Positions 9,618 through 51,650 are shown, counted from the stretch's first letter. The stretch: 64,000 nt of DNA from an uncultured Actinomycetes bacterium (GCA_963827385.1 CAWHAR010000002.1:223656-287655); one strand, 5' to 3'. Notes: generated by a model not told the origin, from the letters alone. Numbers and translations are program-made.

Positions 9618-9760
9618 CGTCGCCTGCGGGGCTCGAACCCGCCGTCCTTCTCGTCGGAACCCTGCCGCATCCTCGCCGCCGCCGCCACGGTAGGGGGACC
9701 GGAACGCGCAGCAGCGGCCCCGAGAGGCATCTGACCGACGTGTTCGTGGAGCGGAGCCGA

Positions 9761-19049: not shown

Positions 19050-19362
19050 TCGCTCACGCTTCACCACTTGCGCATGCGACAAGGCGGCTGCCTTCCGCAG
19101 GATCTCCATGTCCATCTGCAGCTGCGCGTCGCTGACGCAGCCGACGGAGCTCGACACGTTCGGACTCGCTCAACGCTTCGGGATCGTGCGTCGCGTTCAC
19201 GACGCTGCTGATCGGCACGCACCCAGTTCGCCAACGTGTTGTCGCTGATCCCAAGACTCCTGGCGACCTCGGCACGAGACCGACCCGACGAACCGACCAA
19301 CTCGATCGCTTCACGCCGGAACTCGGAGCGGATACTTCGACGGACGACCCAACACGGGCTCC
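19050..19362 (-). mobile_element. IS3-family orfA (HTH transposase subunit) remnant, frameshifted; no orfB
   Basis: Pieces lie in three frames: GRPSKYP, then EFRREAIELVGSSGRSRAEVARSLGISDNTLANWV, then SESERVELRRLRQR, then AQLQMDMEILRKAAAL. No rve/DDE orfB was recognised downstream. Confidence 0.65.
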
Positions 19363-20012
19363 TTCCTCCAGGGCTTCCCCCCAGAATCAGGTGTCCACGC
19401 AACCGGGTTGACTCCACTTGTCCCAGCTCATGATTCGCCAGTCGGAATCGTCGGCTGACGGCCCACCGGCACGAACCCCCCAGGGGGTGATGCTGCCCCT
19501 CATCGGGGTCCCGCGCCTCCTGGTGACATTTGCGAACGCTGGCGTGTCGCTGCACGGCCACTCCAGAGCGGCAATCTGGCGTGCTCATCGGTGGGTGAAC
19601 CATTTCCAACTTTGCTCTGGAACTGCTGCGCTTCTCGGCTGGCTGCGCCACAATCTGTTCGTGAATCAGGACCAGTCCTCGAACCGGCAACCTCTCGAAT
19701 CACACCCATTCGACAACGATGGGAACGACCTCATCGCAAGGTTGAATTGGGTAGGCGGCGCTTTGCTCGTCGCAGCGATCAGCCTGATAGTTGGCGGGGT
19801 GGCCTACGCCAACTTCTTCACCGGTGCGTCACGCTGGGACTTCGTTCGGATCGCGGCGAGAACCGTGAGCCCCTGGGCAGCGTTGCTAACCCTTGCGGCG
19901 GCCTTGGCGTTCGCTGCCACCTTCAGCGGCCATCGATGATCTCGCCCCGGAGCGACCGCACTCCTGTTCGTGACAGCGTGCGTCGCGCGATCCAGTCGGC
20001 CGTGGAGGAATC

Positions 20013-23493: not shown

Positions 23494-24294
23494 GTGACTG
23501 ACGACGTTGAGGTGCTACACGGTGGTGTAGCGAACGCGGGCCAGGTCGTGCGCGTCGGCGACGATGTGCTGCGACCAGCGCCATCAAATGGCGCGACCAT
23601 CCACCGCTTGCTTCGACACCTCGTCGACGGCGGCATCGGCATCGCGCCCGAACCGCGAGCCCTTGCCGACGGGCGAGAGAAGCTCGGTTTCATCCATGGC
23701 GATGTGCCGGTACCTCCGTATCCCGATTGGGCGCAGTCGGACCGGGCGTTGGCGTCAATCTCGGCACTGATTCGAGCGTTGCACGACGCGTCGCGCACCT
23801 TTGCTCATGAGAGCGGCGACGCTTGGAGTACCGAGATGGCTGACGAGCGCCCCGGTGGCTCGGTGGTGTGCCACAACGACGTGTGCTTGGAGAACGTCGT
23901 CTTTCAAGGCGGCGTCGCCGTCGCGCTCCTCGACTTCGACTACGCCGCGCCGGGCAGGCCGAGCCACGACTTGGCCTGCTTCGCCCGCATGTGCGTGCCC
24001 ATCGATGACGAGACGAGCCGCGCAAACCTCGGGTGGAGCGCAGTCGATGGTCCTTCGCGTTTGCGCCTGGTCGCCGATGAATATGGGTGCACAGCAACCG
24101 AGCGCAGAGAGATCTTGGAGACACTCGACCGACAGATCGCGCGTGGTGGCGAGTTCGTGCTGCGTCACGTCGAGGCGGGCGAACCGGGTTTCGTTGCGAT
24201 GTGGGCTTCGATCGGCGGAATGGCGCGCTTCGACCGTCGACGAGATTGGTGGAGCTCATACCGTGACGACTTCGCCACGGCGATGGACGCGTAG
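23494..24294 (+). CDS. phosphotransferase enzyme family protein (APH/choline-kinase fold)
   Basis: Intact 266-aa ORF. LHGGVANAGQVVRVGDDVLRP at the N-terminus, catalytic loop VVCHNDVCLENVVF and LLDFDYAAPG. Confidence 0.8.
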   Translation: MTDDVEVLHGGVANAGQVVRVGDDVLRPAPSNGATIHRLLRHLVDGGIGIAPEPRALADGREKLGFIHGDVPVPPYPDWAQSDRALASISALIRALHDASRTFAHESGDAWSTEMADERPGGSVVCHNDVCLENVVFQGGVAVALLDFDYAAPGRPSHDLACFARMCVPIDDETSRANLGWSAVDGPSRLRLVADEYGCTATERREILETLDRQIARGGEFVLRHVEAGEPGFVAMWASIGGMARFDRRRDWWSSYRDDFATAMDA

Positions 24295-24566
24295 CCACGC
24301 CATAACTGCCGACTTGTCTCGGTAGTTGTGTGAATTGGCGAATGCTCGCCTGTTGCATGGCGGCCGCCCCAGACGAGGAAGATCCGGCGTGGCCCGGTCG
24401 GGTGCTTCGGGCGCGTACGACTATCTCACGGCGCGTGTCGGCTTCACGGGGCGCACCGCTATTGCACGATCGATCCCGGTCCAACAATGATCCAGCATGC
24501 GCTACGACCGATTGGCGAACAGCGCTCGTGCGGCGGTCTCGTCCGCCGACGATGATCCCGTGGAGC

Positions 24567-25397
24567 ATGGCTTCTCGCGCTCTGTCGGGGGGCATGACGA
24601 ACGACGTGTTCGTCCCGGTCGAGCGTCCGGACCTTGTCGTGAAGGTCTTTCAAGGCGGCCGCGCCGACGAGCCGGAGCAGGAATGGGACGCGGCCTGATG
24701 GCTCTCACGGGCTCCGGGATCGTGCCGGGACCCGGTCCACTTCGAGCGCAGCAGTCCAGCCGTCGTTGTGATGACGCGAGTGCCCGGTTCGGCCCTGCAC
24801 GCGGGGCGCTTGCACAGGAACACGCCCACGCGATCGGCAACACACATCGCCTCGTGCACGCGGCCGTCCCGGAACACCGACGAATCCCCGCCCACACAGA
24901 GCTGCGCAGCACCCAGGCTATCCCTTATGCAAGACAGACCAACCCGACCTTGGCGCACACCACCGACGCGGACGGATCTCGTCGCAACAGCATGGCGGGC
25001 AGCTCGGGCGTGGATCGCTGACGCCGACATCGATCGCCTCTTTGCCGCCGAGCGACTTCGGTTCTGCCGCGGCGACCCGAACGCGAGCAACTACCTGTGG
25101 AGCGACGACAGCCTCATGCTCATCGACTGGGAGAACAGCGGCTACAACGACCCGGCCCTTGAGCTTGCGGACATGGCCGAGCACGCGAGCACTCGGACTC
25201 TCGGGCAAGACTTCTGGAGTTCCGTTGCTGACGCCACCGAACTCACCGCCGAAGACCGAGCACGCGTCGTGCACGGTCGACGGTTCATGGCGTGCTGCTG
25301 GCTCGTCATCATCGACAGCAGACACCGCCAAGGGCGACCAACAACCGTGACACCTGAAGAACAAGCCCATCGCACGCTCGCCACACTCGATCTCTGA
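24567..25397 (+). CDS. phosphotransferase enzyme family protein, frameshifted
   Basis: ATG at 24567 (MASRALSGGMTNDVFVPVERPDLVVKVF). The middle lies in ORF 24497..25021. The C-terminus lies in ORF 24768..25397 (FCRGDPNASNYLWSDDSLMLIDWENSGYNDPALELAD). Confidence 0.6.
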
Positions 25398-30497: not shown

Positions 30498-31594
30498 CCC
30501 TCGGACTCCCTTGACTTAGGCGGACGAGTTCCGCGATGCCATCAGCGACCGCCGCCGCCGTACCGATCCAGAATCCTGCCTCGCGCCAGACCGACTCCAC
30601 GCCACAGGATCCCAAGAACTCGGTGTACGCCTCGCCGACCGATTCGGTGAACAGCGCCACGAGACGCACCGGCGAGCCCGCGGCGTAGAGGAAGTGGCGG
30701 TAGCTGAACAGCTGGCCGAGCGCGGCACGCACCGCGCTCGTCGCGTCGGTGCAAGTACACGACTTTCGCTTCGATCAACCACTCGTCATCACCGCGACGC
30801 AACACCAGATCTCGGGGATGTTCGGTCGAAGGAACCAGACCTTGGTGATGCACCCACTCGCCGTATTGGCGCACCAAGGTTTCGTGGCGGCGCGACTTCC
30901 CGAGCTTGCGGCCGACGATGTACGACACGTACTCGGAGTCGTCTTTCGGTTTGAAGTTACGCAGTGGGTCTTCATTGAGACCGTCACCGGTCGTGGGCGA
31001 TGCGACCGAGCCGGGATTCGTGAGCAGCAGTTCGCGTTTCACGGCAATCGCGTCTTCGTAGAGCCCGAGGTAGCGATCGAGGTCTCGCTCGAGGACAGCG
31101 TCGTCTGGAAGTGCGACAAGTTCGTAGCGTGTCGCGATGATGTTGCCTGCTTGGTAGTTCCGTTGCCGATCACCATTCGATGACAGGTCCATCTCGGTCA
31201 GCAGGCCTGTGGTGGTCCCGTCCGTGAGGCCTTCCCTGATTGCGAGCGCATCTACCGCGAGTCGTGCGCGGGCCTTGCTGTTACCGATCTCGCTGCGCAG
31301 GTGCTCCATCCCCTGGTTCAAAGTCAACGTGACGCTTGCAAGGTCTTGCGCGAACAGGTAAACGACGTAGATGCCTTCCTGAGGGTCGGTTGTCTCGTCA
31401 GGATCGAAGAACCCGACCCATGGCGTGTACGTCGCTGAGCCTTTCCCTCCACTTCCGACGATGGTGACGCCGCCCGGCGCATAGTCAGCCAGTTCGGTGC
31501 CGGCGTGTCGCAGCAGCTGCTGCGCAGAGGTCTGAAGCCCGTCTTCGCGGCGATAGGTCATCGCGATTTCTTGAAGGAACTCGCGAAGCTTCAC
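30498..31594 (-). CDS. DUF3578 (McrB N-terminal-like DNA reader) fused to a PD-(D/E)xK nuclease-like domain; frameshift, stop unresolved
   Basis: GTG at 31594 with GGGGGAG upstream. VKLREFLQEI...VGSGGKGSATYTPWVGFFDPDETTDPQEGIYVVYLFAQD...LTLNQG is the DUF3578/MrcB_N pattern. The C-terminus DEWLIEAKVV continues in another frame as VRAALGQLFSYRHFLY. No in-frame stop occurs before the MazG-like gene. Confidence 0.6.
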
Positions 31595-31798
31595 CCCGCT
31601 CCCCCGCAAGCGGGTCGACCCGACTTGCCGCACAATGAGGCGACCACGGACCAGGTGCGCACCACGTCGTTCGGTATCGGTTCGTCACCCATCGAGTTGC
31701 GCCCCTCCGCTCGCGATCTCGTGCAGTCTTGCCTACTTTGGGCAGCCGTCGTTCCCCCGCACCTGAACGAGCAAGAAGCGACGCGGCGGCGCTTGCGA

Positions 31799-36688: not shown

Positions 36689-38450
36689 TCAGGGGTCCAC
36701 CTTCTCGATGCGCCAGGTGTTCGCTTGTCCGCGTCGAGGGACCTGAATGAGCTTGAGACCAGCGGCGATACGGTCCCGGCGCGCTCGGAGGTACGCACCG
36801 ACCGAGTTTTGGTTCCACTGCGACACATGCGGTTCCACATGGCCTCGGAGCTGTCCGTCCTCGACGAGTTCCAACGCCGTGAGCTCCTGGTCGCCGTACG
36901 CGACGGACCAGGCGCTCAGGAACTCCGCAAGCTCGTCACGTTCGGGGTCCTCTCCCGTGTCGAGGTCGCTGAGGTTGTCGAGGAACCCAGACACCCCGGC
37001 TGTCTGGAGGAGCCCACCGATCACCGAGTCCCACGATTCGTAGGATCCGATCCGTCCCGGCTGTCCGAGCGGACTCCCTTGTTGGACCCACCACTGGACG
37101 ATCACGAGTGAGGCCCACACCAGATGACGGCGGTTCTCCAGCGCCCAACCCGGCAGAGAGTGTCGCCACTGCACGCCGGGGCCAGGTCCGGTCCGTCGGG
37201 CGGGCTCCTCGACTTTGGCATCGAGACGAATCGGCACGCAACGACGTTTGAGATCGGTCCCCGGGGTTGCGTTGTTGGCGGTGAGCGTCCACAGCTGCGT
37301 GACCGGCACGTCAATGCTCGCGTTGACGCCCAAGAGGCGATCAGTCCAGCGTGCCTCGGTGAGCGCCTGTTCGAGTACCGCCGACTTCACTGTGCCCTTG
37401 ACGTTGTCCCACTTGATTGCCGGTGCGCCCTCACGCAGCTTGGACGTGACGGCCTTGCGGCGCTCGCTCTCGTTGTCGGGAAACGAGTACGAGGCGACCA
37501 CTCCACACGCGGGGGCGAGGAGGCAGTCGACGAGTTTGCCCTTCCCCGTACCTGGCTCGGGTGCACCAACCCAGTGCAGCGGTGTCGGGCCTTGAATCAC
37601 GTTGCGGACGAACGGAGTGAACAACACACTCAGTGCGTTCGCACGGTCAGCGTCGCTCACGAAGGGAAAGTCGCCGAGCAGCTCATCGAGGAGCCAGCGC
37701 TTGGCGAGCACGAGGTCCCCCACGGTGATGGTCTCAGGCAGCTTCAGGTTCCGAAGCTCCCGAGGCGGTCGGTAGTACGTGCGAGTGCCGCGGGCCATAG
37801 CCCTCCGTGGATTGCAAGGCCCCGTTCGAGTCCAACACCGGGACCGTCACGACACGATCGAGAAAGGGGAAGGGCGCGTTGCTGGCGCTCCTAAGCACCG
37901 CCGCGGCAAGAGTCGCGGGCGGATCGATGTGGCGACGTTCCAGTTCAGACTTGCGTTCGTCCGCCTGGACCCACACCGCAGCCTCAGCCAGTCGCCGTCG
38001 CAGTGCCAAGGTGGTCAGTGTCGCGACGGTGCCATTGTCAGCGACGGTGACGAGTTCGTCGCCACGTCGGAACGTCTCGGGAGCGCCATACTCGGCATCT
38101 CCCAGCGCCGACAACGCCGGACCGACGAGCGCGAACTGTGTGGTTCCCACTTCGATCCTCGGCAGCGTCAGGAACCTCACCGCTGTCCGGGGGAAGCGCG
38201 GATCACGACTCCAGAAGTGGGCGACCTCGCAACCGCGTCCCGAAGTACAACGCACCTCAATCAGGCGCGGTGACCGCAACGTGTACTTGACGCTCTTCTC
38301 AGCGTGGCAGTTCGGACACTGAATGAACTCGTCGGGCTGATTCGCTAACCACGCGCAGTAGTGGTCGGCGTCATCCAGATCGAGGGGCCCTCCGTCGTCG
38401 TCCCAATCATCGGGATCACCATCCTCAGGAATCTCGATCTCTTCACGCAA
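36689..38450 (-). CDS. replication protein of the integrative element: zinc-finger N-domain plus P-loop NTPase (primase/helicase-like), one frameshift
   Basis: ORF 37734..38450 (CPNCHAEKSVKY...VPVLDSNGALQSTEGYG) joins ORF 36689..37798 (RGTRTYYRPP...WVGAPEPGTGKGKLVDCLL, Walker A) near 37790-37800. Confidence 0.6.
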
Positions 38451-39077: not shown

Positions 39078-39254
39078 CTAGGCGTTGACCCTCGTGTCCA
39101 CCCACGCGTCGACGTCCTCGCGCCGGTAGCGCAGGTGGCGGCCCATCCGGGCTGCTTGGGGGCCGGTGCCTTGGTAGCGCCACTGGTACAGGGTCGCGAC
39201 GGGGATGCCCAGGTAGGCGGACACGTCCTGGATGGTCAACAGCGGGTCATGCAC
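39078..39254 (-). CDS. excisionase-type helix-turn-helix DNA-binding protein (HTH_17/MerR-like Xis)
   Basis: Absent from the ORF track (58 aa). Manual translation from GTG 39254 (GGAGA upstream): VHDPLLTIQDVSAYLGIPVATLYQWRYQGTGPQAARMGRHLRYRREDVDAWVDTRVNA, stop at 39078-39080. Confidence 0.7.
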   Translation of the reverse strand: MHDPLLTIQDVSAYLGIPVATLYQWRYQGTGPQAARMGRHLRYRREDVDAWVDTRVNA

Positions 39255-39515
39255 AACAGTTCTCCGTTCGGGGGTAGGCGGTTTGTATGGGTTCGTCCCA
39301 TTGTACCTCAGCCTTGCGGGACCCGTGGTCGCGCTCGCGCACCCTTCCTGACCAGCCCAAATGAACCCTGGAACGCCCCCACCCCTCCCCGCAAACAGAG
39401 GTACGTTAGGAGCACCTAACCACCATCCTGGAGAGCCCCTCGTGCACCACCCGGAACCCGCCCCTGACCCGACGACACCGCCGCTTCCCGTCCCGCAACT
39501 GGCAGGCGTCTAGCG

Positions 39516-40628
39516 GTGGGGCACGTCGCGCGACGCCACAACGTGGGCGGGTCGATCAGCTACCAAGGCGTCACCCGGACCCCCGAAGGCAAAGAACAAA
39601 CCCGAACCTTCGTCCGCAAACTCGACGCGCAACGCTGGGTCACCGCCCAAGACGCCGCCCGTCAACGCGGCGACTGGATCGACCCCACCGCGGGGCGCCA
39701 ACCCTTCGAGCCCTACGCCAAAGAATGGCTCACCACCAAACGCGCCACCGTCGCGCCCCGCACATACGTGAACCTCGAAGGACGGCTCCGCAACCACCTT
39801 CTCCCCGCCTTCGGGACACGGGCGCTCGCGTCGATCCACCCCGCCGACATCCGCACCTGGATCACAAAGCTGGTCGACGCCGGTCAGTCCCCAGCCAGCG
39901 TCAAGAAGAACTTCCAAATCCTCAACCAAATCCTGCGCACCGCCGAAATCGACCGACTCATCGGCCGCAACCCCGCCACGGGCATCGCACTCCCCCGCGA
40001 TACCCACCACCAAGAAATGACCTTCCTCAACCCCGCACAGATCACCCAACTCGCCGACAAGATCGCGCCCCGCTACAAGGCGCTCATCTACACCGCCGCC
40101 TACACCGGACTACGCGCCGGAGAACTCGAAGCGCTGCGCATCGCGGACCTCGACCTCCTCCACGGCACCATCTCCGTCCACGCGTCCCTCGCCGAAATCC
40201 ACGGCGAACTCCACGAAGGCCCCACCAAAACCGGACACAACCGCACCGTCGCACTCCCCCGGTTCCTGGTCCGGATGCTCGAGGGCCACCTCAGCGCACA
40301 CCCCTCCCACACGGGACACCTGTTTACGGCACCCGAAGGCGGCCCCATCCGCCACCGCGCCTTCATGGCCCGCCACTACCGACCCGCCGTCACCAAGGCT
40401 CAACTCGCACCCACGCTCCGATTCCACGACCTCCGCCACACCTGCGCCGCCCTCCTCATCGCCGCAGGCGCACACCTCGAAGAAATAAAAGACCACCTCG
40501 GCCACGCCACCATCCGCACCACCTCAGACCGCTACGGCCACCTCTACCAAGAAGCCCGCGAACGGCTCCGCGACCACCTCGACCACACCTACAGCGAGGC
40601 GCACACAACCGGAGCCGCGAGCGCATGA
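39516..40628 (+). CDS. tyrosine-type site-specific recombinase/integrase
   Basis: 370-aa ORF. SAM-like N-domain (TYVNLEGRLRNHLLPAFG) and catalytic residues in AAYTGLRAGELEALR, RFHDLRHTCAALLIAAG and LGHATIRTTSDRYGHLY. The N-terminus looks slightly short. Confidence 0.9.
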   Translation: MGHVARRHNVGGSISYQGVTRTPEGKEQTRTFVRKLDAQRWVTAQDAARQRGDWIDPTAGRQPFEPYAKEWLTTKRATVAPRTYVNLEGRLRNHLLPAFGTRALASIHPADIRTWITKLVDAGQSPASVKKNFQILNQILRTAEIDRLIGRNPATGIALPRDTHHQEMTFLNPAQITQLADKIAPRYKALIYTAAYTGLRAGELEALRIADLDLLHGTISVHASLAEIHGELHEGPTKTGHNRTVALPRFLVRMLEGHLSAHPSHTGHLFTAPEGGPIRHRAFMARHYRPAVTKAQLAPTLRFHDLRHTCAALLIAAGAHLEEIKDHLGHATIRTTSDRYGHLYQEARERLRDHLDHTYSEAHTTGAASA

Positions 40629-40915
40629 CCGAACGCAACGACTGAAGACTTAGCGACACCACGGACTGGAACTTCGGCGGTGTCCGTAGTCCAGCGATCT
40701 CACCCGGGAGTGGTCGTCGGTCGGATGGGCGGTCTTCCGCTTGACGGGGGGACGTGCGTGGCATCAAGATGGGTGTGGCGAGATCCGCGCCGAACCCCCA
40801 CGAGCGTCACCCAGCGACGCTTCTCCCGGGGGGCAAAGGGGGCTTCAGCCCTCGGGTCGCTGTCCGGTTGGATCGCGTGGGCTAGAGCAGCTGGGATTGC
40901 CGTGCTCGCGCGTTC

Positions 40916-41771
40916 GTGAGGCCGATGACAGCGAAGAAGCGGTTCAAGCAACATGTGCGCGACCGTGCCCGCAAGACGGGCGAGTCGTACACAACCGCGC
41001 TTGCACACGCTCGTCGTCGGCCGGCGGAGGAGCACTCTGTGCTGTACGACACCATCGGAGCTACATACATCCAGACCCGACACACCGAGCCGCGAATCGC
41101 CGCCCGAATCGTGGGCAGCCCTCGGGGATGCTGAAACCGTGCTGAACGTCGGTGCGGGCACCGGGTCCTACGAGCCACTCGACCGCTACGTCCTGGGGGT
41201 CGAACCGTCGAAACTCATGCGCTCGCAGCGAGCCCGAGGCGCGGCACCGTGTATGGCGGGATCGGCCGAGAGCCTGCCGTTCGATGATCAATCCTTTGAC
41301 GCGGCGATGGCGTTCTCAACCATTCATCACTGGCGGGACCCGATCGCTGGCCTGCGCGAGATGCGACGCGTGGCCCGCCGCGTCGTTGTGCTCGCATTCG
41401 ACACGAGTAAACCGAACCAGTTCTGGCTGACCCGTGACTACCTGCCCGAGGTCGTGGGCTTGAAGGGGTTCAGTCTCCTCGCATCACTGCCTGAGTTAGC
41501 GAATGCGATTGGGGCCCGCATGGAACCAGTGCCTATTCCATGGGACTGCGCTGACGGTTTCTACGAGGCCTACTGGCGTCGACCCGACGCATACCTCGAC
41601 GAGAACGTTCGCCGCGGCATCTCGACCTGGACCGCAGTCGGTACCGATGTAGAAGAGAGGGCGGTGCGCAAGCTGCGCAATGACCTGGACTCGGGCCGTT
41701 GGTCGGAGCGCAACAGCGACCTCGCCGACATGGATGCCGCCGAGCTTGGCGCTCGTCTCCTTATCGTCTGA
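40916..41771 (+). CDS. class I SAM-dependent methyltransferase, one frameshift
   Basis: The N-terminus MTAKKRFKQHVRDRARKTGESYTTAL...VLYDTIGATYIQTRHTEPRIAARI lies in ORF 40916. The body lies in ORF 40953..41771 (VLNVGAGTGSYEP, DDQSFDAAMAFSTIHHW). The junction is near 41110-41125. Confidence 0.7.
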
Positions 41772-42033
41772 ACGCCGTCGCTCGACGAACATCGCGACAC
41801 ACCGGGGTGCCGAGGCCCAGCCGCTCCGCAACGGGCAAATCTGTGCGGGTAGACGACGAGCCAGGAGAGGCGTCGAATCACGGTGCTGCTCGCAGCGTGG
41901 TCGCCCGCGTGTTGGGCTCGGGCGGGGGGCTCGGCGTGTGGAACTTCGGCAGCACCAGCCACACCAGGTCGATAACTCGGCGCGTCCCGCAATGAGTTGG
42001 TTGCGGTTTGCCGAGCCGCGAGCGTGGTCGACG

Positions 42034-42937
42034 TCAGGCACCGTGCTGAAAGCGCTCCGGCACGTGCTCCTCGAAGGCCGTCAGCATCTCGCCCATGAAG
42101 ACCCGGACAGCATCCCAGATCGCTTCGCAGACGGCCTGCGCATCGCGATCCTCGTCGTAGGTCAACCCCTCGCGATGCTCGACTCGTGCGGTAACCGGGT
42201 CGGGAAACGGCAGGACGAGCCGACCCTCGCGGACGATCCCGCTCTTCGACCCCGCGAACGGGCTGCATGTGCAGGTTCAAGTTCGCGAAGTGTTCCGCCT
42301 CGACGAACGGCGTGGAAAGCAGCTTCGATCGCGCCGCGATCACAGCGTCACGACGTGGTCCTTCAGCAAGAGCCATGACAAGACCTTGATCGGGTAAGCC
42401 CCTGGGTCCTCGACGTCGAAGCCGATCATCCAGGGTGGGCGCGCCCACATCAATAGCTCTTCGACCGAGTACCAAGCGTCTTCTGTCCTCGGGTCCATGA
42501 TCCCTGTCGGAAATGTCGGATCGGATTCAGCGATGAACACGGCGTGAGTCGTCTCCGCTTGAGTGATGGAGCTTCGCAGCGCGTCGATTGCACGTTCGAC
42601 GCCACCTGCAGCGTCGATGACGTCCCACAACATCGACCGTGTCGCTGTGACGACGATTTCGATGTCGTCGTACTCCCGGCCGAGGGAGTGAAGCCGCGGG
42701 GCCAATGACGTCGGCGCCCTCGTAGCGCATCGGATCGGATACCCATAGTTCAAGCCCAAAGTCAAGCGCGACGCCATGCTTACTGAAGTTGGCGGCTGAC
42801 GTTGCCATTCCCATGCTTGCGGAGGCATGGGCACGAAGGTAGGCCCGGTCATCCGGCGTGCCACGGATAGCACGACTCCCGAGTCGTCTTCTTACCGGGT
42901 CAAGGTCGGGCAATCTCGATGGATGTCGCCAGGACAT
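42034..42937 (-). CDS. hypothetical protein (about 300 aa), about three frameshifts
   Basis: Pieces, in order: ORF 42527..42937 (ANFSKHGVALDFGLELWVSDPMRYEG), ORF 42340..42873 (REYDDIEIVVTATRSMLWDVIDAAGGVERAIDALR), part of ORF 41570..42475 (VIAARSKLLSTPFVEAEHFANLNLH). A manually translated tail follows (IVREGRLVLPFPDPVTARVEH...FEEHVPERFQHGA), with stop at 42034-42036. Confidence 0.4.
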
Positions 42938-43072
42938 ACGACGGCCAACGACTAGCCGACTTCCACGGCGCGACGCCGGCCTTCGTCATCGGTCATTTCG
43001 TCTTTTGTCACTCGAGACTTACTCGGGCAGATAGATGGACTTGACGTTGGCACGGTGCGGTCAGTGATCAGC

Positions 43073-43608
43073 TCAGTTCATCGCCTTGGCCGCTAACGCA
43101 CCAATGAGTGCGGCGATGATCGCTGTGCCAAGAAGGATCCAGATCTGTCGCCACGTATCGGCCGAGAGACCAGCTGCTTCGGCCCGCTTCGTCGGCACCA
43201 CGCAGAAACCGATGTGCTCGGTGGGATGTAGACAGCGGCAAGAAAGATCACGACGAGGGTCGTGAGCACACACGGCGCAAGCCAGGGCAACACATCTCCG
43301 AAGTTGCCCTGGTCTTGCGCTGCGACGCCGTACGCGACCAGCGCGACGAGTAAGCCCACACACCAAGCAATCACGCCAGGGGCATATCGAACGCCCGACC
43401 AGATTGATCCACGATCCGAGATCCAGAGAGCGATGTCGTCGACGATCCTCCGCGCTACCGAATCGTCGTCGTCGCAGCTCACTGAGGCAACGTCACCGAG
43501 AAAGACATGCACGCGTGGGTTGAAGCAGTACATGCTCACGGAGCGCAGCTCGTCCTTGGTTGCCTCCGCGGAGGTCGTCGACCTCGGGAGCGCGGGCACC
43601 GCCAGCAC
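43073..43608 (-). CDS. multi-pass membrane protein, one frameshift
   Basis: ORF 43093..43608 (GVIAWCVGLLVALVAYGV, VLTTLVVIFLAAVYI) continues in ORF 43073..43366 (WRQIWILLGTAIIAALIGALAAKAMN). Confidence 0.45.
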
Positions 43609-43774
43609 TGAGCCTCGGACCGTCGTTGAGAGAGTGCGCCGAGTGGCGCGTCCGCCGCCGCCTTCTCGATTTCGTTCCAGAAGATCTCCAGGTCATCGAG
43701 GTAAAAGGCGCGCGGGACCGACACGTCTTCGGTAGTCGCCGTGGGACTGATGAAGCTCGCGTTCCAGCTTGGAC

Positions 43775-45166
43775 TCACGGTCGAGAACGATAACGCTCTG
43801 CGCGCTTGGTGAGGGTCTGGTCTAGAACAGTGTGTCGAAGTTGTCGTTCCAAGCACAGCCAGACGCCATGGCGAGCGCACAGGTCTCGCCATCGAGGATC
43901 GGCAGGCTTGCTTTCGAGCGCGACCGCCGCACTCACTGTGTCGAAATGGTCTTCGAGCCGGTGTTGGTAATCGAGTACCTGACCGAGCGCGAGTCGGATC
44001 TGACTGGCCTCGTTCGTCCCGGTCAGGCTCTTGACCTCGACGACCGTGACGCCCGCTGGGTGGTGCCAAGCGATATCGAAGCTTGGGTCGCCAGGACCAG
44101 GGGACAGCGGCATGTACCCGTGACGGGCGATGGCGTTCTTCAGTGCCTGTTGCGTCGCCTGGTGGCCGCGTAGCCCACGGTCGATCCGCACTTCGAGGAT
44201 CCACCTCGAACGGATCACGTGGCGGGCTGGCGTGGTCGGGATCAACGTCGCGGTAGGGCGTGGCGAGGAGTGGACGAATGATTCGCCGGTCCGGCTTTGC
44301 GACATGTTCGATCACCGTGGTACCGACGGGATGCAGTCGGAACATGACCACCTTGCGAAGTTGGCCGGAACCGCTTTCGTGGACGTTGACCCAGTAGATG
44401 GGGTCTGAATCGTCGAGCGTGAACTCGCCGGCGTATTCGACAGTGCCTTTCGATCCCCAGAACACGCGGAGGGCCCGACCATCGGATTGATGGTGCAAGA
44501 TTGCCCCATTACCAGCATCGAGGGTTTGGTCGCCGTGTTGGCCCTCGCCGGCGTAGTGAAACTCGTTACCGTCCCATCGGTCGTAGTAGCCGTGCTGCTC
44601 ACCGCTCCCGGCGTCCGAGAGAGGAACACGTTCGGTGTCTGCGCGGAAGGTCCGATGCCGCCCCGGCGGCTGCCGCCGTACCGCTCGTGCAGCTCAACGT
44701 GACGTAGCTGGGCGCCGGCCTCCAACTCCCAGTCCGTGAGCTGCGTAAAGAGGGGGAACTCGACACGAGTCACGGCGCCGATCATGGCCATCGCTTGTTG
44801 TTCGCCGCCGAGTTCTTGCAGCGAACTGGCGGGGACTCGGTGTTGGAACTCGAGATCGATCGCCGAGTACCCGGCAAGACCACGCGGGTTGTCGATCGGC
44901 CAGTCGCCATCGAGGGAGTAGCCGATCAGTGGCTCGTTGCTCGCGTTGGCGACGACGAACACGTACCGACCGTTGAGCCCAACTACGCGGAACGCCGCGA
45001 CGGTTGCGAGCTCGGCGTCAGTGCGCGCCTGGGTGATGTCGTATCCGATCCGGAAGCGACGGCCACCAGCGGCGCGCAACGTTCGCCGCGATCCCATGAA
45101 GTGGCGAGGCCACCAGCCGCCCGTGCCATCCGGGAGCGTGTAAGGACGGTGATCGAAGCGAGCCAC
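43775..45166 (-). CDS. type IV (modification-dependent) restriction endonuclease-like protein: SRA/YDG-like reader plus PD-(D/E)xK nuclease; frameshifted
   Basis: The N-domain lies in ORF 44312..45166. Manual and track translation gives GYYDRWDGNEFHYAGEGQHGDQTLDAGNGAILHHQSDGRALRVFWG (SRA-like). The C-terminus in ORF 43775..44305 has DIAWHHPAGVTVVEVKSL...LALGQVLDY (D...EVK nuclease motif). Confidence 0.6.
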
Positions 45167-45283
45167 AAGCCCATTCTTCCTCGTCCGGACGCGACGGTCG
45201 GTAACTCCAAGCCTTACTGCGGCTTACACCAAGATGATCGTGACGTGAGGAGCCAGCGGCGCTCGGGTCAACAGCACGTCATG

Positions 45284-45375
45284 CACGCCACCATCCGCAC
45301 CACCTCCGACCGCTACGGCCACCTCTACCAAGAAGCCCGCGAACGCCTCCGCGACCACCTCGACCATACGTACGC
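45284..45375 (+). pseudogene. remnant copy of the integrase 3' end (copy B)
   Basis: About 92 bp aligning to 40503-40594 with few mismatches. It encodes HATIRTTSDRYGHLYQEARERLRDHLDHTY, and no upstream integrase body is present. Confidence 0.8.
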
Positions 45376-45571
45376 GGATGCGCGACCGGTTGCGAGAGCG
45401 CCTGACACACCACGTGGCACGCACCAGCGGGCCGTCACCGATCGAAGTCTCAAGCAGGCACTTCGGGGAGGCTTGTGGTCGCGACTAGGGCCCGAGCGCG
45501 TGCAGGTTCTTAACAAAGCAAGCGTCGACAAGTTGCTCGCGGGTCAAGCACGGGTGCGGTATCACTATCCG

Positions 45572-46351
45572 ATGGACGACCGGGAGATTCCGCTCGCGGG
45601 CGGGAACCTCAACCCTTCTGTGGTGCGCGTGGGCGAGACGGTTCGTCGAACGGCCGGGCCGTGGACTCCTGCCGTGCACTCGCTCCTTCGGTATCTCGCA
45701 GGGGTCGGCTATCCCGCGCCCGTGCCATTCGGTATCGACGACAGGGGTCGTGAGGTGTTGTCGTTCGTCGACGGCGTTGCCGTGCACCCGGACCACGTGG
45801 AATTGATGGCGCATCTTCCTGCGCTCACCCGGGCTGCGAGTTTGATCGCCGATTATCACGACGCCCAACAGCACTTCATCCCACCCGCTGATGCGCAGTG
45901 GCAAAACAACGGACGTGATCCGTCTGGATCAGAGGAGGTGTTGGCGCACAACGACTTCGCTCGTGGAATCTGATCGTCGGACCCCGATGGGTGTACATCG
46001 ACTGGGACCTCGTCGCTGCCAGGCCGTCGCTATTGGGATCTCGCATGGGCGTTGCATTCGCTCGGCGGCCTCTGGCCCGGAAGTGGGTTCTCGGACACGG
46101 ACACGGTTGCTCGGATCGTCGCGTTTTGCGATGGGGCCCGTGTGCCGCTTCAAGATCGAGCGCAGCTTCTCGGCACAGTCGTAGAGCGGACCGCCTACTG
46201 CGCGGAGGAGATTCGGCGTCGCAGCGAGGCGAGAGAACCCGCATATGTGCGGATGATGGACGACGGACACGCCGAGGGTTGGGCGCAGGGCTCGACTCAC
46301 GTGGAGCAACACCTAGAACTATGGACGCGACTTCTTAACGGCGACGGCTGA
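45572..46351 (+). CDS. phosphotransferase enzyme family protein (APH-like), two frameshifts
   Basis: ATG 45572: MDDREIPLAGGNLNPSVVRVGETVRRTAGPW...EVLAHNDFA. Then WVYIDWDLVAARP (ORF 45991). Then WDLAWALHSLGG... to the stop at 46351 (ORF 46052). Confidence 0.65.
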
Positions 46352-46563
46352 TCACGCCGACCACCCCGGCGATGGCCACAGGCGTCAGCAGCGCCCCGCG
46401 GAGGGTGGAGCGCAGTGGTATCCGGCAACTGTTTCGGCAGCTCGTACTCACACGCCAGACGAAGACGTCGTCAAGCAGGTAACAATTTGCTTCTTCGGCA
46501 GCGTGACTCTGGCGAGTCTGCGTCCAGGGAAAGCACAGGCCGTCTGAATGAATGGGCGGTTGA

Positions 46564-47377
46564 GTGATGGACCATCTCGCGCACACCAGTACGGACCGTT
46601 GGGACGTGGTCGCCGACTCCTACGGCATTTCGCCAATGATTTCCCGACTCGCCAACGGGCTGGTCGATGCGGTGGGGATTGCAAGTGGAGAGTCGGTCGT
46701 CGACGTGGGAACGGGCACTGGGCTGGCGCTGTTTGCGGCGGCGCGACGAGCTCGGGACGGAGTGGCGGTCGGCGTCGATCGCAGCTACCAGATGTTGAAG
46801 GTCGCGTCGAGCGCGATGTCGAGCCCAACAATGGTCGTCGGCGGTCTTGTCCGTGCCGACGCACTCTCACTTCCTCTCCGGTCCTCAACCGTCGACGTCG
46901 CTTTGGCGGCGTCCGTGTGGCAGTTCGTCGGTTACTCCCAAGACGCTCTTGTCGAATGGTCGCGGGTGCTGCGTCCCGGCGGCCGTCTGGGCATGTCAGT
47001 GCCCGGCGGCGGCTCCGAAGCAAGCATTCCAGGCGACCTCACCGCCAAGTACTTCGACCGCCTCACACCGTCCGCGCAGGCGGACTTCGCATCGAGGGCC
47101 TCGTCGGCTCGCGCCCAACCTGATCTGTGCGAGACGCTCACCGAAGCGGGCTTCTCGGACGTGGAGGTGCTCCAACGCAGCTGGAACGATGTCCTGTCCG
47201 GGCCGGAAGACTGGTGGGCGCTCCAGTGGACCCACGGCTCCCGGTTCTTTCTTCAAGGTCTCGAGCCCGACGCGGCTGAGCGCTCTCAAAGCAGAGGCGC
47301 TGGATCGGCTCGGGCGCTCCGACGATGGCGGAGTGACAGTCACCACCAAGGTGACCTACTGCGTAGCGCGTCGCTAA
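46564..47377 (+). CDS. class I SAM-dependent methyltransferase, C-terminal frameshift
   Basis: ORF 46564..47427 with VVDVGTGTGLALFAAA and VLRPGGRLGM. The tail continues in ORF 46847..47377 (SALKAEALDRLGRSDDGGVTVTTKVTYCVARR). Confidence 0.7.
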
Positions 47378-47423
47378 GCGTCACTTGTAGTGGAGGAGGC
47401 AGCGGTGACTGTGTCGGATCGTC

Positions 47424-47999
47424 GTGACTCCCAGTTCCGAAAGCCGGTCGACGCCAGGTATCGCATTGAGTGAGCGTGTTCGAGTGGACGAGGTCATCAC
47501 CGGTGCGGAGATGGAACTGCGCCGCTGGATGCCGTCCGATCGCGAGGCGCTGGCAGAAATCGTTACCTCATCGCTGCCCCACATCGCGACGTACATGCCA
47601 CAGGCCGCGACGGAGCTCGCCGACCCCGCAGCGTTCCTCGCGCTTGCGAGTCGACTGTGGGCTGCCGGGTCCGTCTTTGCGTACTCGATTGTTCGCGCCG
47701 GTCGAGTCGTCGGCCACATCACGCTGACTCCAGAGAGATCGGGTGCCGTAGTGGGCTATTGGGTTCGTTCTGAGGACGTCGGGCTTGGCTACGCCACGGC
47801 CGCGATCGGTGTCCTGGCCGACGCAGTGTTCTGCAGCACAGACATCATTGAGCTGCGTGCCGACTGCAATGTTGCGAATGCCGCGAGCGCGCGCGTGCTC
47901 GCCAAGGCCGGCTTTCGCCTCGCGGGCCGGCGCTCGTGGCAGCCCCGCACCGAAGCCGAGGCGCCTGAGGAACTTCTTTGGGTCCTCGATCGATACTGA
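47424..47999 (+). CDS. GNAT family N-acetyltransferase (RimJ/RimL-like)
   Basis: Intact 191-aa ORF. GYWVRSEDVGLGYATAAIGVLADAVF and NVANAASARVLAKAGFRLAG. Confidence 0.8.
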   Translation: MTPSSESRSTPGIALSERVRVDEVITGAEMELRRWMPSDREALAEIVTSSLPHIATYMPQAATELADPAAFLALASRLWAAGSVFAYSIVRAGRVVGHITLTPERSGAVVGYWVRSEDVGLGYATAAIGVLADAVFCSTDIIELRADCNVANAASARVLAKAGFRLAGRRSWQPRTEAEAPEELLWVLDRY

Positions 48000-48036
48000 G
48001 ACGCGACTTGCCCCCATAGCACCCGCTCGCGGGTGC

Positions 48037-48122
48037 CCTCAGACACCAGCACCGCCACGGCAACCTCTATCAAGAAGCCCGCGAACGGCTCCGAAACACA
48101 GTGACCAGACCTACGCCGAGCG
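48037..48122 (+). pseudogene. degenerate remnant copy of the integrase 3' end (copy C)
   Basis: Aligns to about 40520-40605 with indels. It encodes ...HGNLYQEARERLRNTVTRPTPSE, compared with YGHLYQEARERLRDHLDHTYSE in the intact gene. Confidence 0.6.
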
Positions 48123-48258
48123 AACAACGAGTCTCGGTTGCCGCAAGAGGTCCCAGGTGCAGTGTTGGTGGTGGCACCTGAATGGGTCAGGCGGTTCGAC
48201 ACGGCAGAAAACACGTCGGTCGGAAGGTGTGCGGCGCTTCTGTTGGAAGGAGCCGCCG

Positions 48259-48881
48259 ATGTTCCACGCGAGACCGGTACCTTCGCAAGCCGTGACTTTC
48301 ACCGAAGCGCAGGTCAGGGACGCCGCGGGCGGGCTCTCGGTATCGCGCCCTCCAACTCTCTGGTGTCGCCGGCATGACGGTCGTGAAGGCCGCGTGGTCG
48401 ACTCAGAATCCGTACTTCTCGCAGACGATCAAGAACGCGCTAATCGAGTCGTCGCTTACCACCGCGGGCGCTCGCGTACTTCTTCACCCGGCAGCCGTAC
48501 GACGTCGGGTACGACGACATCCCTTCGACTTGGAAGCCGAGCAACGGCTTCGTCAACCTGGCAAAGCGCATCGCGGGACCGATCTCAACAGCACACAGTC
48601 ACTCCCAACCTGCGAGCCCGGAAGGTGATCCGCACCCGGGCGAGTGGCCAGTTGTCGAGATGGCAGTTGTGCTTGTCGGCGAGCTCGCGGTTCGTTGAGC
48701 GCATCGACCCAGACGCATGCGATCCGGGCTGGTTCGACCCGTCGCCGATCGCAACATACGAAGAGCTCATGTCTGTCGACCCACTCCGCGAGTTCACAGC
48801 TGTCAGCAATCACGAGAGGGTGGGCGACTCGACGAACTCCTGTGCGACTATCTCGGCGAGTTCGGCCACCCGCTCGTCTGA
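48259..48881 (+). CDS. hypothetical protein, about four frameshifts
   Basis: ATG 48259 with GGAAGGAG upstream. Pieces, in order: MFHARPVPSQAVTFTEAQVRDAAGG, MTVVKAAWSTQNPYFSQTIKNALIESS, YFFTRQPYDVGYDDIPSTWKPSNGFVNLAKRIAG, FVERIDPDACDPGWFDPSPIATYEELMSVDPLREF, RLDELLCDYLGEFGHPLV. Stop at 48879-48881. The reconstruction is tentative. Confidence 0.35.
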
Positions 48882-48898
48882 TCACGGAGGCGAATCGG

Positions 48899-49663
48899 GT
48901 GCGACGCGAAGAGACTCTTGCCTTCGAGCTCGTAGCGCGGGTCCTGGGCATCGCCGTCGAGTCACACGACGACGGCAGCGAGCCGGGCATGGTCGACGCC
49001 CTGATCCAGTACGGCGATGGTGAGGTCGGCGCGCTCGAAGTCACGACTCTCGCCGACCAGGCGACCATGCAACTCGAAGGCGAGCTCGGCGACGGGACAT
49101 ACACGGTCGCGGGAGCATCGTTGGCGTGGCACGTTCGCATTCCGACTGGGGTGAGCCTCCGCGAGTTCCGCAAGCGCCTCGATCAGGTGGTGCACGAGTG
49201 CGAGAGCGCCGGTCATACCAACGTCGAGGGGCTCCGTTGGTCTGGCAGCGACGACGCCCGGTGGTTCGTCGAGTCCCGGATCGACCTGCAGGGGTTCCCA
49301 ACGTCCGCCCACCCGGGCGCGGTTCATGCGATCGCACGGGGTGGTGGCGGCGGGGCAATCGACCATGAGCTCACGAAGCTCGTCCCATGGCTCCACGACG
49401 AGTTCGAGAACGAGCCGTTCGCCGGTCACATTGCGAAACTCGAGCGGACGGGTCTGCGCGAGCGCCATCTCTTCGCCCACGTACACGACTCGACGCCGCT
49501 GCTCCCCGAGGACCTCATGCTGAGCATGACCTTCAACGAAACGTTGCCGGTCGCGCCGCTCGATCCGCCAGGCGGGCTTACCTGCTTGTGGCTGGTGCCG
49601 AAGTTCACGAGTAGCGCGCTCGTGTGGCACGCGTACAAGGGATGGCTCCGAGTAACCCTCTGA
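48899..49663 (+). CDS. hypothetical protein, possible nuclease fold
   Basis: In-frame GTG at 48899 with GGAGG 8 nt upstream, 18 nt after the upstream stop. 254 aa, balanced composition (ETLAFELVARVLGIAVESHDDGSEPGMVDALIQYGDGEVGALEVTTLAD). Confidence 0.5.
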   Translation: MRREETLAFELVARVLGIAVESHDDGSEPGMVDALIQYGDGEVGALEVTTLADQATMQLEGELGDGTYTVAGASLAWHVRIPTGVSLREFRKRLDQVVHECESAGHTNVEGLRWSGSDDARWFVESRIDLQGFPTSAHPGAVHAIARGGGGGAIDHELTKLVPWLHDEFENEPFAGHIAKLERTGLRERHLFAHVHDSTPLLPEDLMLSMTFNETLPVAPLDPPGGLTCLWLVPKFTSSALVWHAYKGWLRVTL

Positions 49664-49831
49664 TGCTCGCACCCGCGCACCCTCCGACAGGTACCTCGCT
49701 GGTCACTGTCCCCCGGAACGTCGGTCCCGAGCCGCACTCCTTTCCGGCTTGTGAAGTCTGGGCGGCACGGAGAGCCGGCACTCGCCGCTGAGGCCGCTCT
49801 CTCGACTCCACCGGCCCGAGGTCCGGCTGGC

Positions 49832-50391
49832 TCAGTGTTCCACGGTCGCGGCAGACGAGTTTCCCAGGATCGGCGCGTTGCAGTTCGAGACCTTCCAGTG
49901 ACCGTGATGGAGCGTGAACTCGACCCAGTTGTCGTTCCCGACCTTCGCGACCGGGAGGTTGTACACCACTTGGGCCTCGCCGTGGTTGGACGTCAGGTTG
50001 CGCAGCTCGACGTCACGGATACGAACGCGGTCAAGCGCGACACCCAGTTCGTGTTGCATCGACGCTCGCAAGCCACGGAGATAAAGAGCGGCCTGAGCCT
50101 TTGACAACGACACGCCCGTCGAGTTGCGGTGCATTCCGGGCCTTGCAGACGGCGAATTTCGTCCGCGCTTCCCGTCAGGAACGTTTGTGCCCACGCGACT
50201 GCCGCGGCTCGCACCTTCGACGTCGATTCAGCCGTTGCAGGAGCATCCGTCGTCGGCGGCGTCGGCGACAAAGAGCCGGAGTCCGACACCGAGCTGCTCG
50301 CTCTCACCGGAAGAGTCGAAGCGAACAGGGTGATCAGCCCCACCATGGCGATTAACGCGACTGATCGGCGTACCTCGGACCAGGACATCAC
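49832..50391 (-). CDS. secreted hypothetical protein, one frameshift
   Basis: The signal peptide lies in ORF 49993..50391 (VALIAMVGLITLFASTLPVRA). The C-terminal domain lies in ORF 49832..50194 (LSKAQAALYLRGLRASMQHELGVALDRVRIRDVELRNL...FTLHHGHWKVSNC). Confidence 0.5.
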
Positions 50392-50569
50392 CGCACTCTG
50401 TCACGCTGCGCATCTCTGGTCACGACACGTCCACTCGGTCACTGCGCCGCTGCGGGCATCCACGCGGGAGCCTGACTCCACACGCCGGACGGCTCCGTAG
50501 AGAGCCCGCGAATCACGGCCACGGACTTTCCGCGGACTTGGTGCCTGACTACGGAGCCCCGACGCGGAG

Positions 50570-50651
50570 CAGCGGCCCGAAGGGGCCGCTGACCTGCAGT
50601 TCTCTGGAGCGGACGACGGGATTCGAACCCGCGACCCTCACCTTGGCAAGG
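50570..50651. repeat. right direct repeat of the island (3' half of the intact tRNA-Gly plus its downstream hairpin)
   Basis: Counterpart of 11685-11766. It has the 47-nt identical core 50605-50651 and the hairpin AGCGGCCC-GAAG-GGGCCGCT at 50571-50590. The 14-nt spacer is diverged. Confidence 0.85.
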
Positions 50652-50680
50652 TGATGCTCTACCAGCTGAGCCACGTCCGC
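50605..50680 (-). tRNA. tRNA-Gly (anticodon GCC), CCA encoded
   Basis: The reverse complement GCGGACGTGGCTCAGCTGGTAGAGCATCACCTTGCCAAGGTGAGGGTCGCGGGTTCGAATCCCGTCGTCCGCTCCA folds as a cloverleaf. It has a 7-bp acceptor GCGGACG/CGTCCGC, a D-arm GCTC/GAGC, an anticodon loop TTGCCAA and a T-loop TTCGAAT. Confidence 0.92.
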
Positions 50681-50772: not shown

Positions 50773-51650
50773 GTGGCAACAGTCGAGAAGCCGCTTCGAA
50801 GTGTCAGCGGGTACCTCGCGCTCGCCGCCGGTGCGATCGTCACGTTCGCGGGGCTGGCCCTCATCGGCGCCGGCTCACCGAGCAACGGCAACAGCAACGA
50901 CGGAACGCCTGCGCTGGTGGTGTTGGGGGTGGTCTTCATCACGGCGGCGGTCGTATCGCTGCGCGGGTTCGTCGTGGTCGCTCCGAACGAGTCGAAGGTC
51001 GCCACGTTGTTCGGTCGATACCGCGGCACCGTACGCGCGGGCTTCCACTGGATCAACCCGTTCACCAGTCGATCCACCGTGTCGCTGCGGGTGCGCAACT
51101 TCGACAGCAGCAGTCTGAAGGTCAACGACGCCGCAGGCAACCCGGTCGAGATAGCGGCGGTGATCAACTGGCAGGTCGCCGATACCGCCACCGCGCTGTT
51201 CGACGTCGAAGACTTCGAGGCATTCGTCAGCATCCAGGCCGAGACCGCGGTCCGTCACGTCGCGAGCGAGTTTCCGTACGAGGCGTACGAGGAGGGGCAG
51301 CTCTCACTGCGTGGGAACGCCGATGACGTCGCAGACACGCTCACCCGCGAGCTCCAGCAGCGGCTCGACATCGCGGGCGTGCACGTACTCGACACGCGAC
51401 TACGCCGGCTCGCGTACACGCCCGAGATCGCGGGCGAGATGCTCCGACGCCAACAGGCCACGGCGGTGGTGGCGGCTCGCCAACTGATCGTCGAAGGCAC
51501 GCTCAGCATGGTGGAGGGCGCCCTCGCAACCTCGAAGCAACCGAGACGATCCGGCTCACGCCTGACCAGCGCGCCAACCTGGTCTCGAACCTCCTGGTCG
51601 TCCTGGTCAGCGACCGCGGTGCGCAGCCAGTGGTGAACAGCGGCGCCTGA
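50773..51650 (+). CDS. SPFH/band-7 domain membrane protein, C-terminal frameshift
   Basis: ORF 50773..51636 ([30 protein letters not shown]...). The manually shifted tail [39 protein letters not shown] ends at TGA 51648-51650. Confidence 0.8.

Follow-up and report, generated by a model that had tools for sequence, protein, structure and literature searches.

The stretch of DNA considered here, hereafter the window, comprises 64,000 nucleotides (nt) from an uncultured Actinomycetes bacterium (GCA_963827385.1, CAWHAR010000002.1:223656-287655), with positions counted from its first letter. It contains a low-GC (guanine plus cytosine) island that ends at a tRNA-Gly(GCC) gene, and within this island an intact tyrosine integrase gene (int) is followed by repeated copies of its own 3' end, separated by blocks of cargo genes. 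The integrase gene occupies positions 39516-40628 on the plus strand, is whole, encodes 370 amino acids (aa), and matches the Pfam families Phage_integrase, SAM_3 (Phage_int_SAM_3), and Phage_int_M. Alignment with 30 family members revealed that every invariant catalytic column (R..K..HxxR..H..Y) is kept, alongside the N-terminal SAM-like/arm-binding region. The repeated part of this live gene (tail 1, 40489-40629, plus strand) contains both the codon for the catalytic Tyr (40533-40535) and the stop codon (40626-40628).

Tail 2 (45270-45406, plus strand) was delineated by alignment to int and is the stub of a second, closely related integrase, extending from about codon 316 to the stop. Its ungapped alignment pairs int positions 40489-40602 with 45270-45383 at 88% identity, and the gapped alignment (40489-40629 versus 45270-45406) spans the stop-codon region with a single 4-nt indel. 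The longest exact run shared by tails 1 and 2 is 38 nt, and an exact run of 23 nt is shared between tails as well. Tail 3 (48051-48126, plus strand) is an older stub that matches 40528-40605 and has a 43-nt core with 40 identical positions; its lesions comprise the replacement of the catalytic Tyr by His (TAC to CAC), a His-to-Asn change, and a 1-nt deletion that shifts the frame. The 23-nt core pattern is found at exactly three sites, one in each of tails 1 to 3, versus none expected on basis of 100 shuffles. These alignments bear out an earlier, sequence-only reading of this DNA, according to which the 3' end of int is present in three same-orientation copies and no integrase body precedes either remnant. 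With respect to the latter, tblastn with int detected no other integrase body in the 64-kb window at E<=100, and when the 350 nt that precede each stub were aligned with five int genes, the scores did not exceed those of shuffles after allowing for 25 tests. A fourth copy, tail 4 (50332-50495, plus strand), is a heavily degraded stub with many indels that starts at about the DLRHT motif and resembles the integrase of L003, one of the related loci described below. Its local alignment with the L003 int 3' end has a score of 61 (z=4.8), which was reached by none of 500 shuffles and compares with at most 50 for real control segments; a global alignment was also made. Tail 4 runs directly into the P arm, terminator, and tRNA, and the decay of the stubs rises from int toward the tRNA, in the order tail 2, tail 3, tail 4. 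On the left, tails 2 and 3 have ragged ends that lie 39 nt apart on the int sequence (40489 versus 40528), while both lose similarity at the right around 40602-40629, where the family-wide conservation of int also ends.

The pattern of substitutions in tail 2 is informative with regard to its origin. Over the 30 codons HATIR...HTY it differs from int at four positions, all four of which are synonymous third-position changes. Synonymous changes make up 24% of the possible single changes in these codons, so that P would be about 0.003 under neutrality. The C-terminal extension adjoining this core differs from int by approximately 30% and contains the 4-nt indel. The combination of exclusively synonymous changes and a diverged extension identifies tail 2 as the end of a second integrase allele that was under selection. 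Tail 2 thus lost its integrase body recently and is neither a decayed local duplicate nor a recent conversion tract, and the stubs together derive from at least two or three further integrase alleles besides the intact int. On the minus strand of the tail core (40556-40573 and 45337-45354), a short GC hairpin is followed by a T-rich run, resembling a terminator; hairpins of this type are no more common in the region than in shuffles. Two further candidates were rejected: post-stop distal sequence and a common end shared by tails 1 and 2 were not significant, and the likeness of the tail core to an anticodon stem-loop was by eye only, with a geometry that misfits the flanks.

The island measures 39 kb (11.77-50.6 kb), with GC fractions of 0.62-0.65 inside and 0.67-0.71 outside. 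At its right end lies the tRNA-Gly(GCC) gene (50605-50680, minus strand), which was called intact by ARAGORN and of which the 3' 47 nt (50605-50651, ending in the anticodon loop) constitute the identity segment of the attachment (att) site, being repeated exactly at 11720-11766. On the side away from the tRNA body, the homology between the two repeats continues through a terminator hairpin and beyond. The left site, attL (11677-11766, plus strand; 90 nt with 87% identity to 50562-50651), consists of a P-arm-like stretch, a terminator hairpin (11685-11706), and the tRNA 3' half. A putative arm-type site located just upstream (11646-11655) belongs to the same P-arm-like stretch, which is homologous to the P arms of the related loci L003 and L004 (z 6-10); the DNA preceding the 11.7-kb repeat is therefore a P arm without an integrase. 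The P' arm (11872-11893, plus strand) lies 106-127 nt inside attL and carries two tandem putative arm-type repeats CGCGGACTTGG. The P arm of attR (50505-50604, plus strand) contains CACGGACTT at 50520-50528, CGCGGACTTGG at 50531-50541, and a terminator hairpin at 50570-50591, and is homologous to the int-end/P arm of L003 and L004 and to the 11.7-kb copy (z 5-12). The 11-mer CGCGGACTTGG has three exact copies in the 64 kb, all of them in the two arms, suggesting that arm-type repeats are present in both P and P' arms. On account of the tRNA-half repeats, the GC step, and the arm repeats at both ends, the interval from 11.77 to 50.6 kb has the anatomy of one integrated unit with the tRNA 3' half as att core. 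The predicted attachment site of the integrase is thereby composed of this tRNA half and the arm-type repeats at the island ends, and not of the int tail. A third, partial copy (9699-9755, plus strand; 84% identical to 11672-11728) lies 2 kb left of attL and retains the P-arm end, the terminator hairpin, and the first 9 nt of the tRNA 3' end (TGGAGCGGA); it may be an old att relic. The sequence between the 9.7-kb and 11.7-kb copies (9740-11640) holds ordinary-looking genes, including an acyl-CoA thioesterase (9740-10549) and a globin-like open reading frame (ORF), and no island genes.

Divergently from int lies an excisionase-type HTH_17 gene (xis, 39078-39254, minus strand; Pfam HTH_17, E=3.5e-15; PHROG 66 'excisionase'), the product of which shares 51-63% aa identity with the HTH_17 proteins that L003 and L004 encode upstream of int. 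This divergent arrangement is apparently also present in the contig of P0002, the closest integrase homologue, and the two genes are co-directional in L003, L004, and L087; the divergent orientation is a mark of a sub-lineage with a rearranged module. The module further includes replication-type genes (36689-38450, minus strand), encoding a 369-aa protein and an overlapping upstream 238-aa ORF. The 369-aa protein matches PHROG 10537 (E=1.8e-57) and PHROG 19930 'DNA polymerase/primase' (E=2.9e-38), and its similarity is confined to the C-terminal third of phage primase/helicase profiles. Since it is partial and overlaps the 238-aa ORF on the same strand, the two may represent one split or frameshifted replication gene. 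Among 5.8 billion proteins searched, P0002 was the closest to the window integrase (68% identity), followed by a group from Acidimicrobiia and Actinomycetota metagenome-assembled genomes (MAGs) at 50-58% identity; a match to Integrase_N_phage was detected for the L003 integrase and for neither P0001 nor P0002. Exact-protein searches with the three possible starts of the window integrase gave no matches, a scan of genome contigs yielded two distant integrases only, and scans of metagenome and viral loci returned mostly distant integrases (<=39% identity) or short contigs.

Five related loci were read (L003, L004, L085, L087, and L088), and in all of these the int ORF runs into tRNA-Gly(GCC) or stops 88-121 nt short of it, with no cargo in between. 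Several ORFs of the family end with the tRNA translated as protein. Each element has its own tandem pair of 9-11-nt repeats after the int core, which is found again about 100 nt inside the other end. For example, L003 contains CGCGGACTT twice at 4248-4269 and twice at 11079-11100, in a layout as in the window, and the corresponding repeats are CGCGGCCCA in L004, of the GACGGGACCGAG type in L085, and TGGACGGAA in L087. The arm motif co-varies between the P and P' arms across L003, L004, L085, and L087. The abutting layout and the arm repeats together imply that the P arm overlaps or directly follows the int 3' end in this integrase family. The window is the exception in the family, with approximately 10 kb between int and the tRNA, and the variability of cargo at this position that the sequence-only reading anticipated in related elements was not encountered in any of the five loci.

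Remnants that have lost int and keep an integrase 3' stub or a P arm are common in these loci. Left of attL, L003 has a 29-nt stub (4006-4034, 'DRLDATF...') that abuts the stop codon of an APH gene and has a terminator and a tRNA half behind it. The stub in L016 covers residues 288-360 and precedes the L016 attL, and that in L057, which starts at residue 268 and reaches the end, lies next to an intact tRNA-Gly and has no integrase body upstream of it. The left starts of the stubs in relatives thus vary (codons ~268, 288, and 343). Besides these two, the metagenome and viral scans added only L103 as a stub candidate, and the tail pattern was not found in viral contigs. Arm-type repeats without any integrase are located left of attL in L004. 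Just left of the attL terminator of this locus (6959-7040), a 23-nt tandem pair of ACATGTCAAGACCCGGTACCGAC is accompanied by two copies of GGATGGACA, and these pairs look like the arm sites of an older element of which the integrase has entirely gone.

The right flank of the window (dUTPase, DUF3501, rubrerythrin, and Fur) is syntenic with L004, L095, and L096, and the locus is orthologous across these genomes. In the close relative L096, which has approximately 81% nt identity at the flank, the tRNA follows 43 nt after the dUTPase gene with its own terminator and without an island, and this position therefore represents an empty site. The L095 contig, from another close relative (Joint Genome Institute 3300081038, approximately 80% nt identity), stops within the dUTPase gene, some 300 nt beyond DUF3501 and shortly before the expected tRNA-Gly locus, where an assembly break would be expected for a variable island. 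The DUF3501 anchor yielded this contig and the empty site and no sister island. Between the tRNA and the dUTPase gene, the window carries an SPFH/Band 7 gene (50773-51636) that is absent in L096 (5853-5971), and other genes occupy this position in L004 and L087, so that variability extends to the 5' side of the tRNA. The SPFH gene was of no use as a synteny anchor, having close homologues in other contexts.

The repeated tails divide the interval between int and the tRNA into three cargo blocks, as had been proposed, which measure 2.2-4.6 kb, hold several ORFs, and taken together run in mixed orientation. Block 1 (40630-45269) contains a class I methyltransferase gene (40953-41771, plus strand; Pfam Methyltransf_11) and ORFs for which neither Pfam nor further library scans gave a family or defence-system match. 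Of the labels in the sequence-only reading, the methyltransferase is supported by Pfam, while the 'SRA-type nuclease' and 'membrane protein' found no library support. The stretch 41043-41773 of the methyltransferase is 80% identical at the nt level to positions 4828-5557 of L004, in the opposite orientation relative to the tRNA. The L004 gene sits in the int-less remnant left of the L004 attL, and its identity to the window gene exceeds that of the two integrases (69%), so that it is either shared cargo of the element family or an old resident of the locus. Block 2 (45407-48050, plus strand) holds a truncated APH-like gene (~45491-45973), a second methyltransferase (46564-47427), and a GNAT acetyltransferase (47424-47999). 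The methyltransferase and GNAT labels agree with Pfam, and the APH-like gene required correction in that it lies on the plus strand and is truncated at 45973. The N-terminal half that remains of it is 36% identical to an APH at 23494-24294 in the window. A long plus-strand ORF (44795-45973) crosses tail 2 in frame and continues into this half, a shared frame that is probably due to chance. The methyltransferases of blocks 1 and 2 are unrelated, with 26% identity over 100 aa only. Block 3 (48127-50331) contains ORFs without family matches, such as 48644-49663 (plus strand). The idea that block 3 is a clean insertion that split tail 3 from the P arm was dropped because of the separate degraded stub at 50332-50495.

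The blocks do not correspond to known defence systems, the single PADLOC match being a methyltransferase domain. Their junctions have no common motif, shared k-mer, core-like sequence, inverted-repeat pair, or conserved terminal element. Moreover, no tRNA half, terminator, or P' arm was detectable after tails 1 to 3, and candidate degenerate tRNA cores and P' arms following the tails were rejected, since none scored above shuffles. The 11.8-kb region from int to the tRNA has no near match in phages, and plasmids gave the tRNA or one weak match only. The remainder of the island contains RHS-repeat ORF fragments, an insertion sequence-type transposase helix-turn-helix, two adjacent APH-family genes, and MrcB_N (McrBC-like), distributed over 13770-15068, 19064-19690, 23494-25397, and 30545-31633, as well as UDG and DUF genes; this part, too, is devoid of inner att sites. 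By its gene content the island body looks like a decayed mosaic that is neither a phage nor a conjugative element.

Most likely, the window displays a composite, partly decayed island inserted into the tRNA-Gly(GCC) 3' end of an Acidimicrobiia-like genome, and the repeated int ends are dead stubs of earlier related integrases rather than sites of cassette capture. On balance, we consider it probable that related elements piled up at the tRNA and that deletions removed the older integrases together with the inner attachment sites. This explanation builds on direct observations, namely the anatomy of the island, the usual layout of the family, the frequent stubs in relatives, and the derivation of tail 2 from a distinct integrase that was under selection. 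For integrative elements, accretion in tandem with later decay has been documented (PMC5704250, PMC2440964). Small elements belonging to a single family, each with a lambda-type tyrosine integrase, an excisionase, and arm-type sites, would insert at the tRNA, and several of these would have accumulated, either in the present genome or as a composite in earlier hosts. Subsequent deletions would have stripped the older integrases of their 5' nine-tenths and taken the accompanying excisionases as well as the inner attachment sites, leaving one live int/xis pair (39078-40628), the dead stubs of tails 2, 3, and 4, and the cargo between them, with the outer attachment sites (11720-11893 and 50520-50651) as sole survivors of their kind. 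These deletions, of which we infer the order and mechanism, may have been illegitimate or may have relied on homology that a stub shares with the int 3' end next to it. One economical way to lose an inner att site along with the int body of a neighbour would be a homologous deletion between a stub in the P-arm region and the int 3' end of the next member, for which the exact 38-nt and 23-nt runs between tails could provide the substrate. The surviving integrase may still be able to move the whole 39 kb. The earlier suggestion of tandem elements reduced by deletion hence fits better than that of cassette stacking, given the ragged boundaries and the lack of cargo in the relatives.

Several observations weigh against accretion followed by deletion. 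As no inner att site remains after tails 1, 2, or 3, each junction requires the deletion of such a site, and a second deletion, of the 5' part of int, is needed per junction unless the cargo was already located downstream of int. The six clear stubs in the window and its relatives all keep at most 100 of the 370 codons, and the genes neighbouring the junctions look intact; 51 nt separate the GNAT stop codon from tail 3, and the L003 stub directly adjoins the stop codon of the APH gene. Random deletion endpoints would not yield such short stubs and intact genes without selection or progressive erosion. Furthermore, serial insertion into a regenerated tRNA should place the newest element beside the tRNA, whereas the most degraded stub is next to the tRNA and the intact int is farthest from it. 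P0002 apparently has genes rather than a tRNA directly after its int, and no close relative of the island was found.

Some of these points are better accommodated by an unlikely alternative, in which RecA recombines the int tail of a related element, along with its downstream genes, into the tail of the resident int. By Campbell-type or unequal exchange in a tandem array, the int end would be renewed, the new block would come to lie next to int, and the old tail would be pushed outward; blocks between tail repeats could later loop out or be exchanged. Such homology-driven serial capture would explain why decay of the stubs grows with distance from int, why the blocks are not separated by tRNA half-sites, and why the similarity of all copies breaks off at ~40602-40629, where the conserved core ends, and it is for these reasons that the earlier idea of incoming DNA regenerating int and displacing the old tail is tentatively kept in this form as a minor possibility, its site-specific form having found no support. 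It also agrees with the derivation of tail 2 from a functional allele, with exact runs of 38 and 23 nt that could support RecA exchange, and with the intact genes at the junctions. However, a single crossover with an excised element of the family would import a P arm, tRNA half, and P' arm, none of which was seen, and a circle consisting of a tail and a block needs prior duplication. The left boundaries, being 39 nt apart, do not coincide as had been envisaged for a crossover site, and the stubs of relatives start elsewhere still; the shared right boundary coincides with the end of family conservation and may reflect divergence rather than a breakpoint; and cargo between int and the tRNA is found in none of the five relatives. 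The more specific proposition that multi-gene blocks are captured and shuffled between int and attR by RecA-dependent exchange, with the conserved last ~90 nt of int as their landing pad, strikes us as quite improbable, and similarly doubtful is its corollary, a cassette-like array in which each capture renews the int end and leaves the old tail as a spacer, with int and att intact.

A mechanism in which the integrase inserts cargo circles site-specifically at a site in its own 3' end, as in integrons, is very improbable. In its favour is only the superficial layout, with an array of blocks after the integrase and a repeat ahead of each block; it is not supported because the att site is identifiable elsewhere (the tRNA anticodon-loop region and arm-type sites), the boundaries are ragged, the multi-gene blocks of mixed orientation have no conserved terminal element, and the array is absent from the five related loci; in addition, the tail copies have no significant similarity to the att core. 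There is scarcely any likelihood that the repeats arose by local duplication of the int 3' end in the same genome, through slippage or unequal exchange, with the copies then decaying neutrally: they do form direct repeats on one strand, within 8 kb, but a dead copy would not acquire synonymous changes only in its core next to an extension that is some 30% diverged, the neutral mix of synonymous and non-synonymous changes is not observed in tail 2, and the blocks, as judged from their methyltransferases, are unrelated to one another. Finally, the serial threading of strain variants that share an int tail during metagenome assembly, conceivable for a source that is apparently a metagenome-assembled contig of 1.13 Mb and whose relatives are all MAGs, is extremely improbable because unique non-int DNA precedes each stub where a false join inside the repeat would have left an int body upstream of each copy, the copies differ mutually, and stubs of a similar kind are found in assemblies made independently.

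Accretion and decay of the ordinary kind at a tRNA hot spot, here 'cleaned' to an unusual degree, is thus the most likely mechanism. The 3' stubs of integrases can preserve the history of elements that arrived one after another at such a hot spot even when no inner att sites remain, and the test for exclusively synonymous changes tells whether a stub comes from an allele that was once functional or from a local duplication. For an uncharacterised family of integrases in Acidimicrobiia-type genomes, the att anatomy is now defined as well: the core is the anticodon-loop side of tRNA-Gly(GCC), and the arm repeats either overlap the int 3' end or come immediately after it. Should serial capture by homology nevertheless prove true, its significance would be larger, as islands could then stack cargo beside the integrase while sparing int and att.

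Comparison with known systems places the island as follows. Integrons share with it an integrase gene followed by an ordered cargo array, but the window has neither attI/attC-type inverted repeats at the block ends nor single promoterless ORFs in one orientation, its integrase belongs to another subfamily, its att site is the tRNA, and its repeats are int coding sequence with ragged left ends. In SSV-type archaeal integrases attP lies within the int gene, so that integration splits int; the overlap of the attachment site with integrase coding sequence is similar here, whereas the overlap is limited to the non-catalytic C-terminal extension and the arm sites, and int stays whole. Tandem islands at ssrA in Dehalococcoides (PMC3146451) are comparable in that horizontally acquired islands are reported to occupy one small-RNA gene by a genus-wide mechanism, while target, phylum, and integrase family differ. 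Integrative and conjugative elements of actinomycetes (AICEs), such as pSAM2, SLP1, pMEA300, and the tandem AICESav3728/3708 (PMC2440964), share the Actinomycetota host, the tRNA 3' end as target, attP directly downstream of int, and an xis/int module with a replication gene, and their tandem integration into a regenerated tRNA has been documented. Unlike in AICEs, no FtsK-type transfer gene, Nudix gene, or regulator module was identified in the window; a primase/helicase-like gene is present, and the scan for a transfer gene of the FtsK/SpoIIIE type, which gave no match, covered part of the island ORFs. Moreover, the AICE tandem in Streptomyces avermitilis keeps a 44-bp att site between its members. 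A close parallel to the piling up is found in the arrays of cis-mobilizable elements (CIMEs) with integrative and conjugative elements (ICEs) or integrative and mobilizable elements (IMEs), such as those around ICESt1/ICESt3 of Streptococcus thermophilus (PMC5704250), in which same-specificity integrases accumulate at the 3' end of one gene, older members lose their integration genes, and composites can be moved via the outer att sites and one integrase. The members of such arrays are kept apart by inner att sites, which define a CIME, whereas from int to the tRNA the former members are marked by integrase stubs of 76-164 nt only; inner att sites of this kind occur solely at the left of the island (at 11.7 kb and, partly, 9.7 kb) and in L003 and L004. 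More than one same-specificity integrase has nonetheless left remnants at a single target, and the interval from int to the tRNA resembles the end state of an accretion array, itself no CIME array, within an island that has the features of a tRNA-targeting, lambda-type tyrosine-integrase island: a recombinase, an excisionase, a direct repeat of the tRNA half with a regenerated tRNA, and arm repeats predicted from the sequence.

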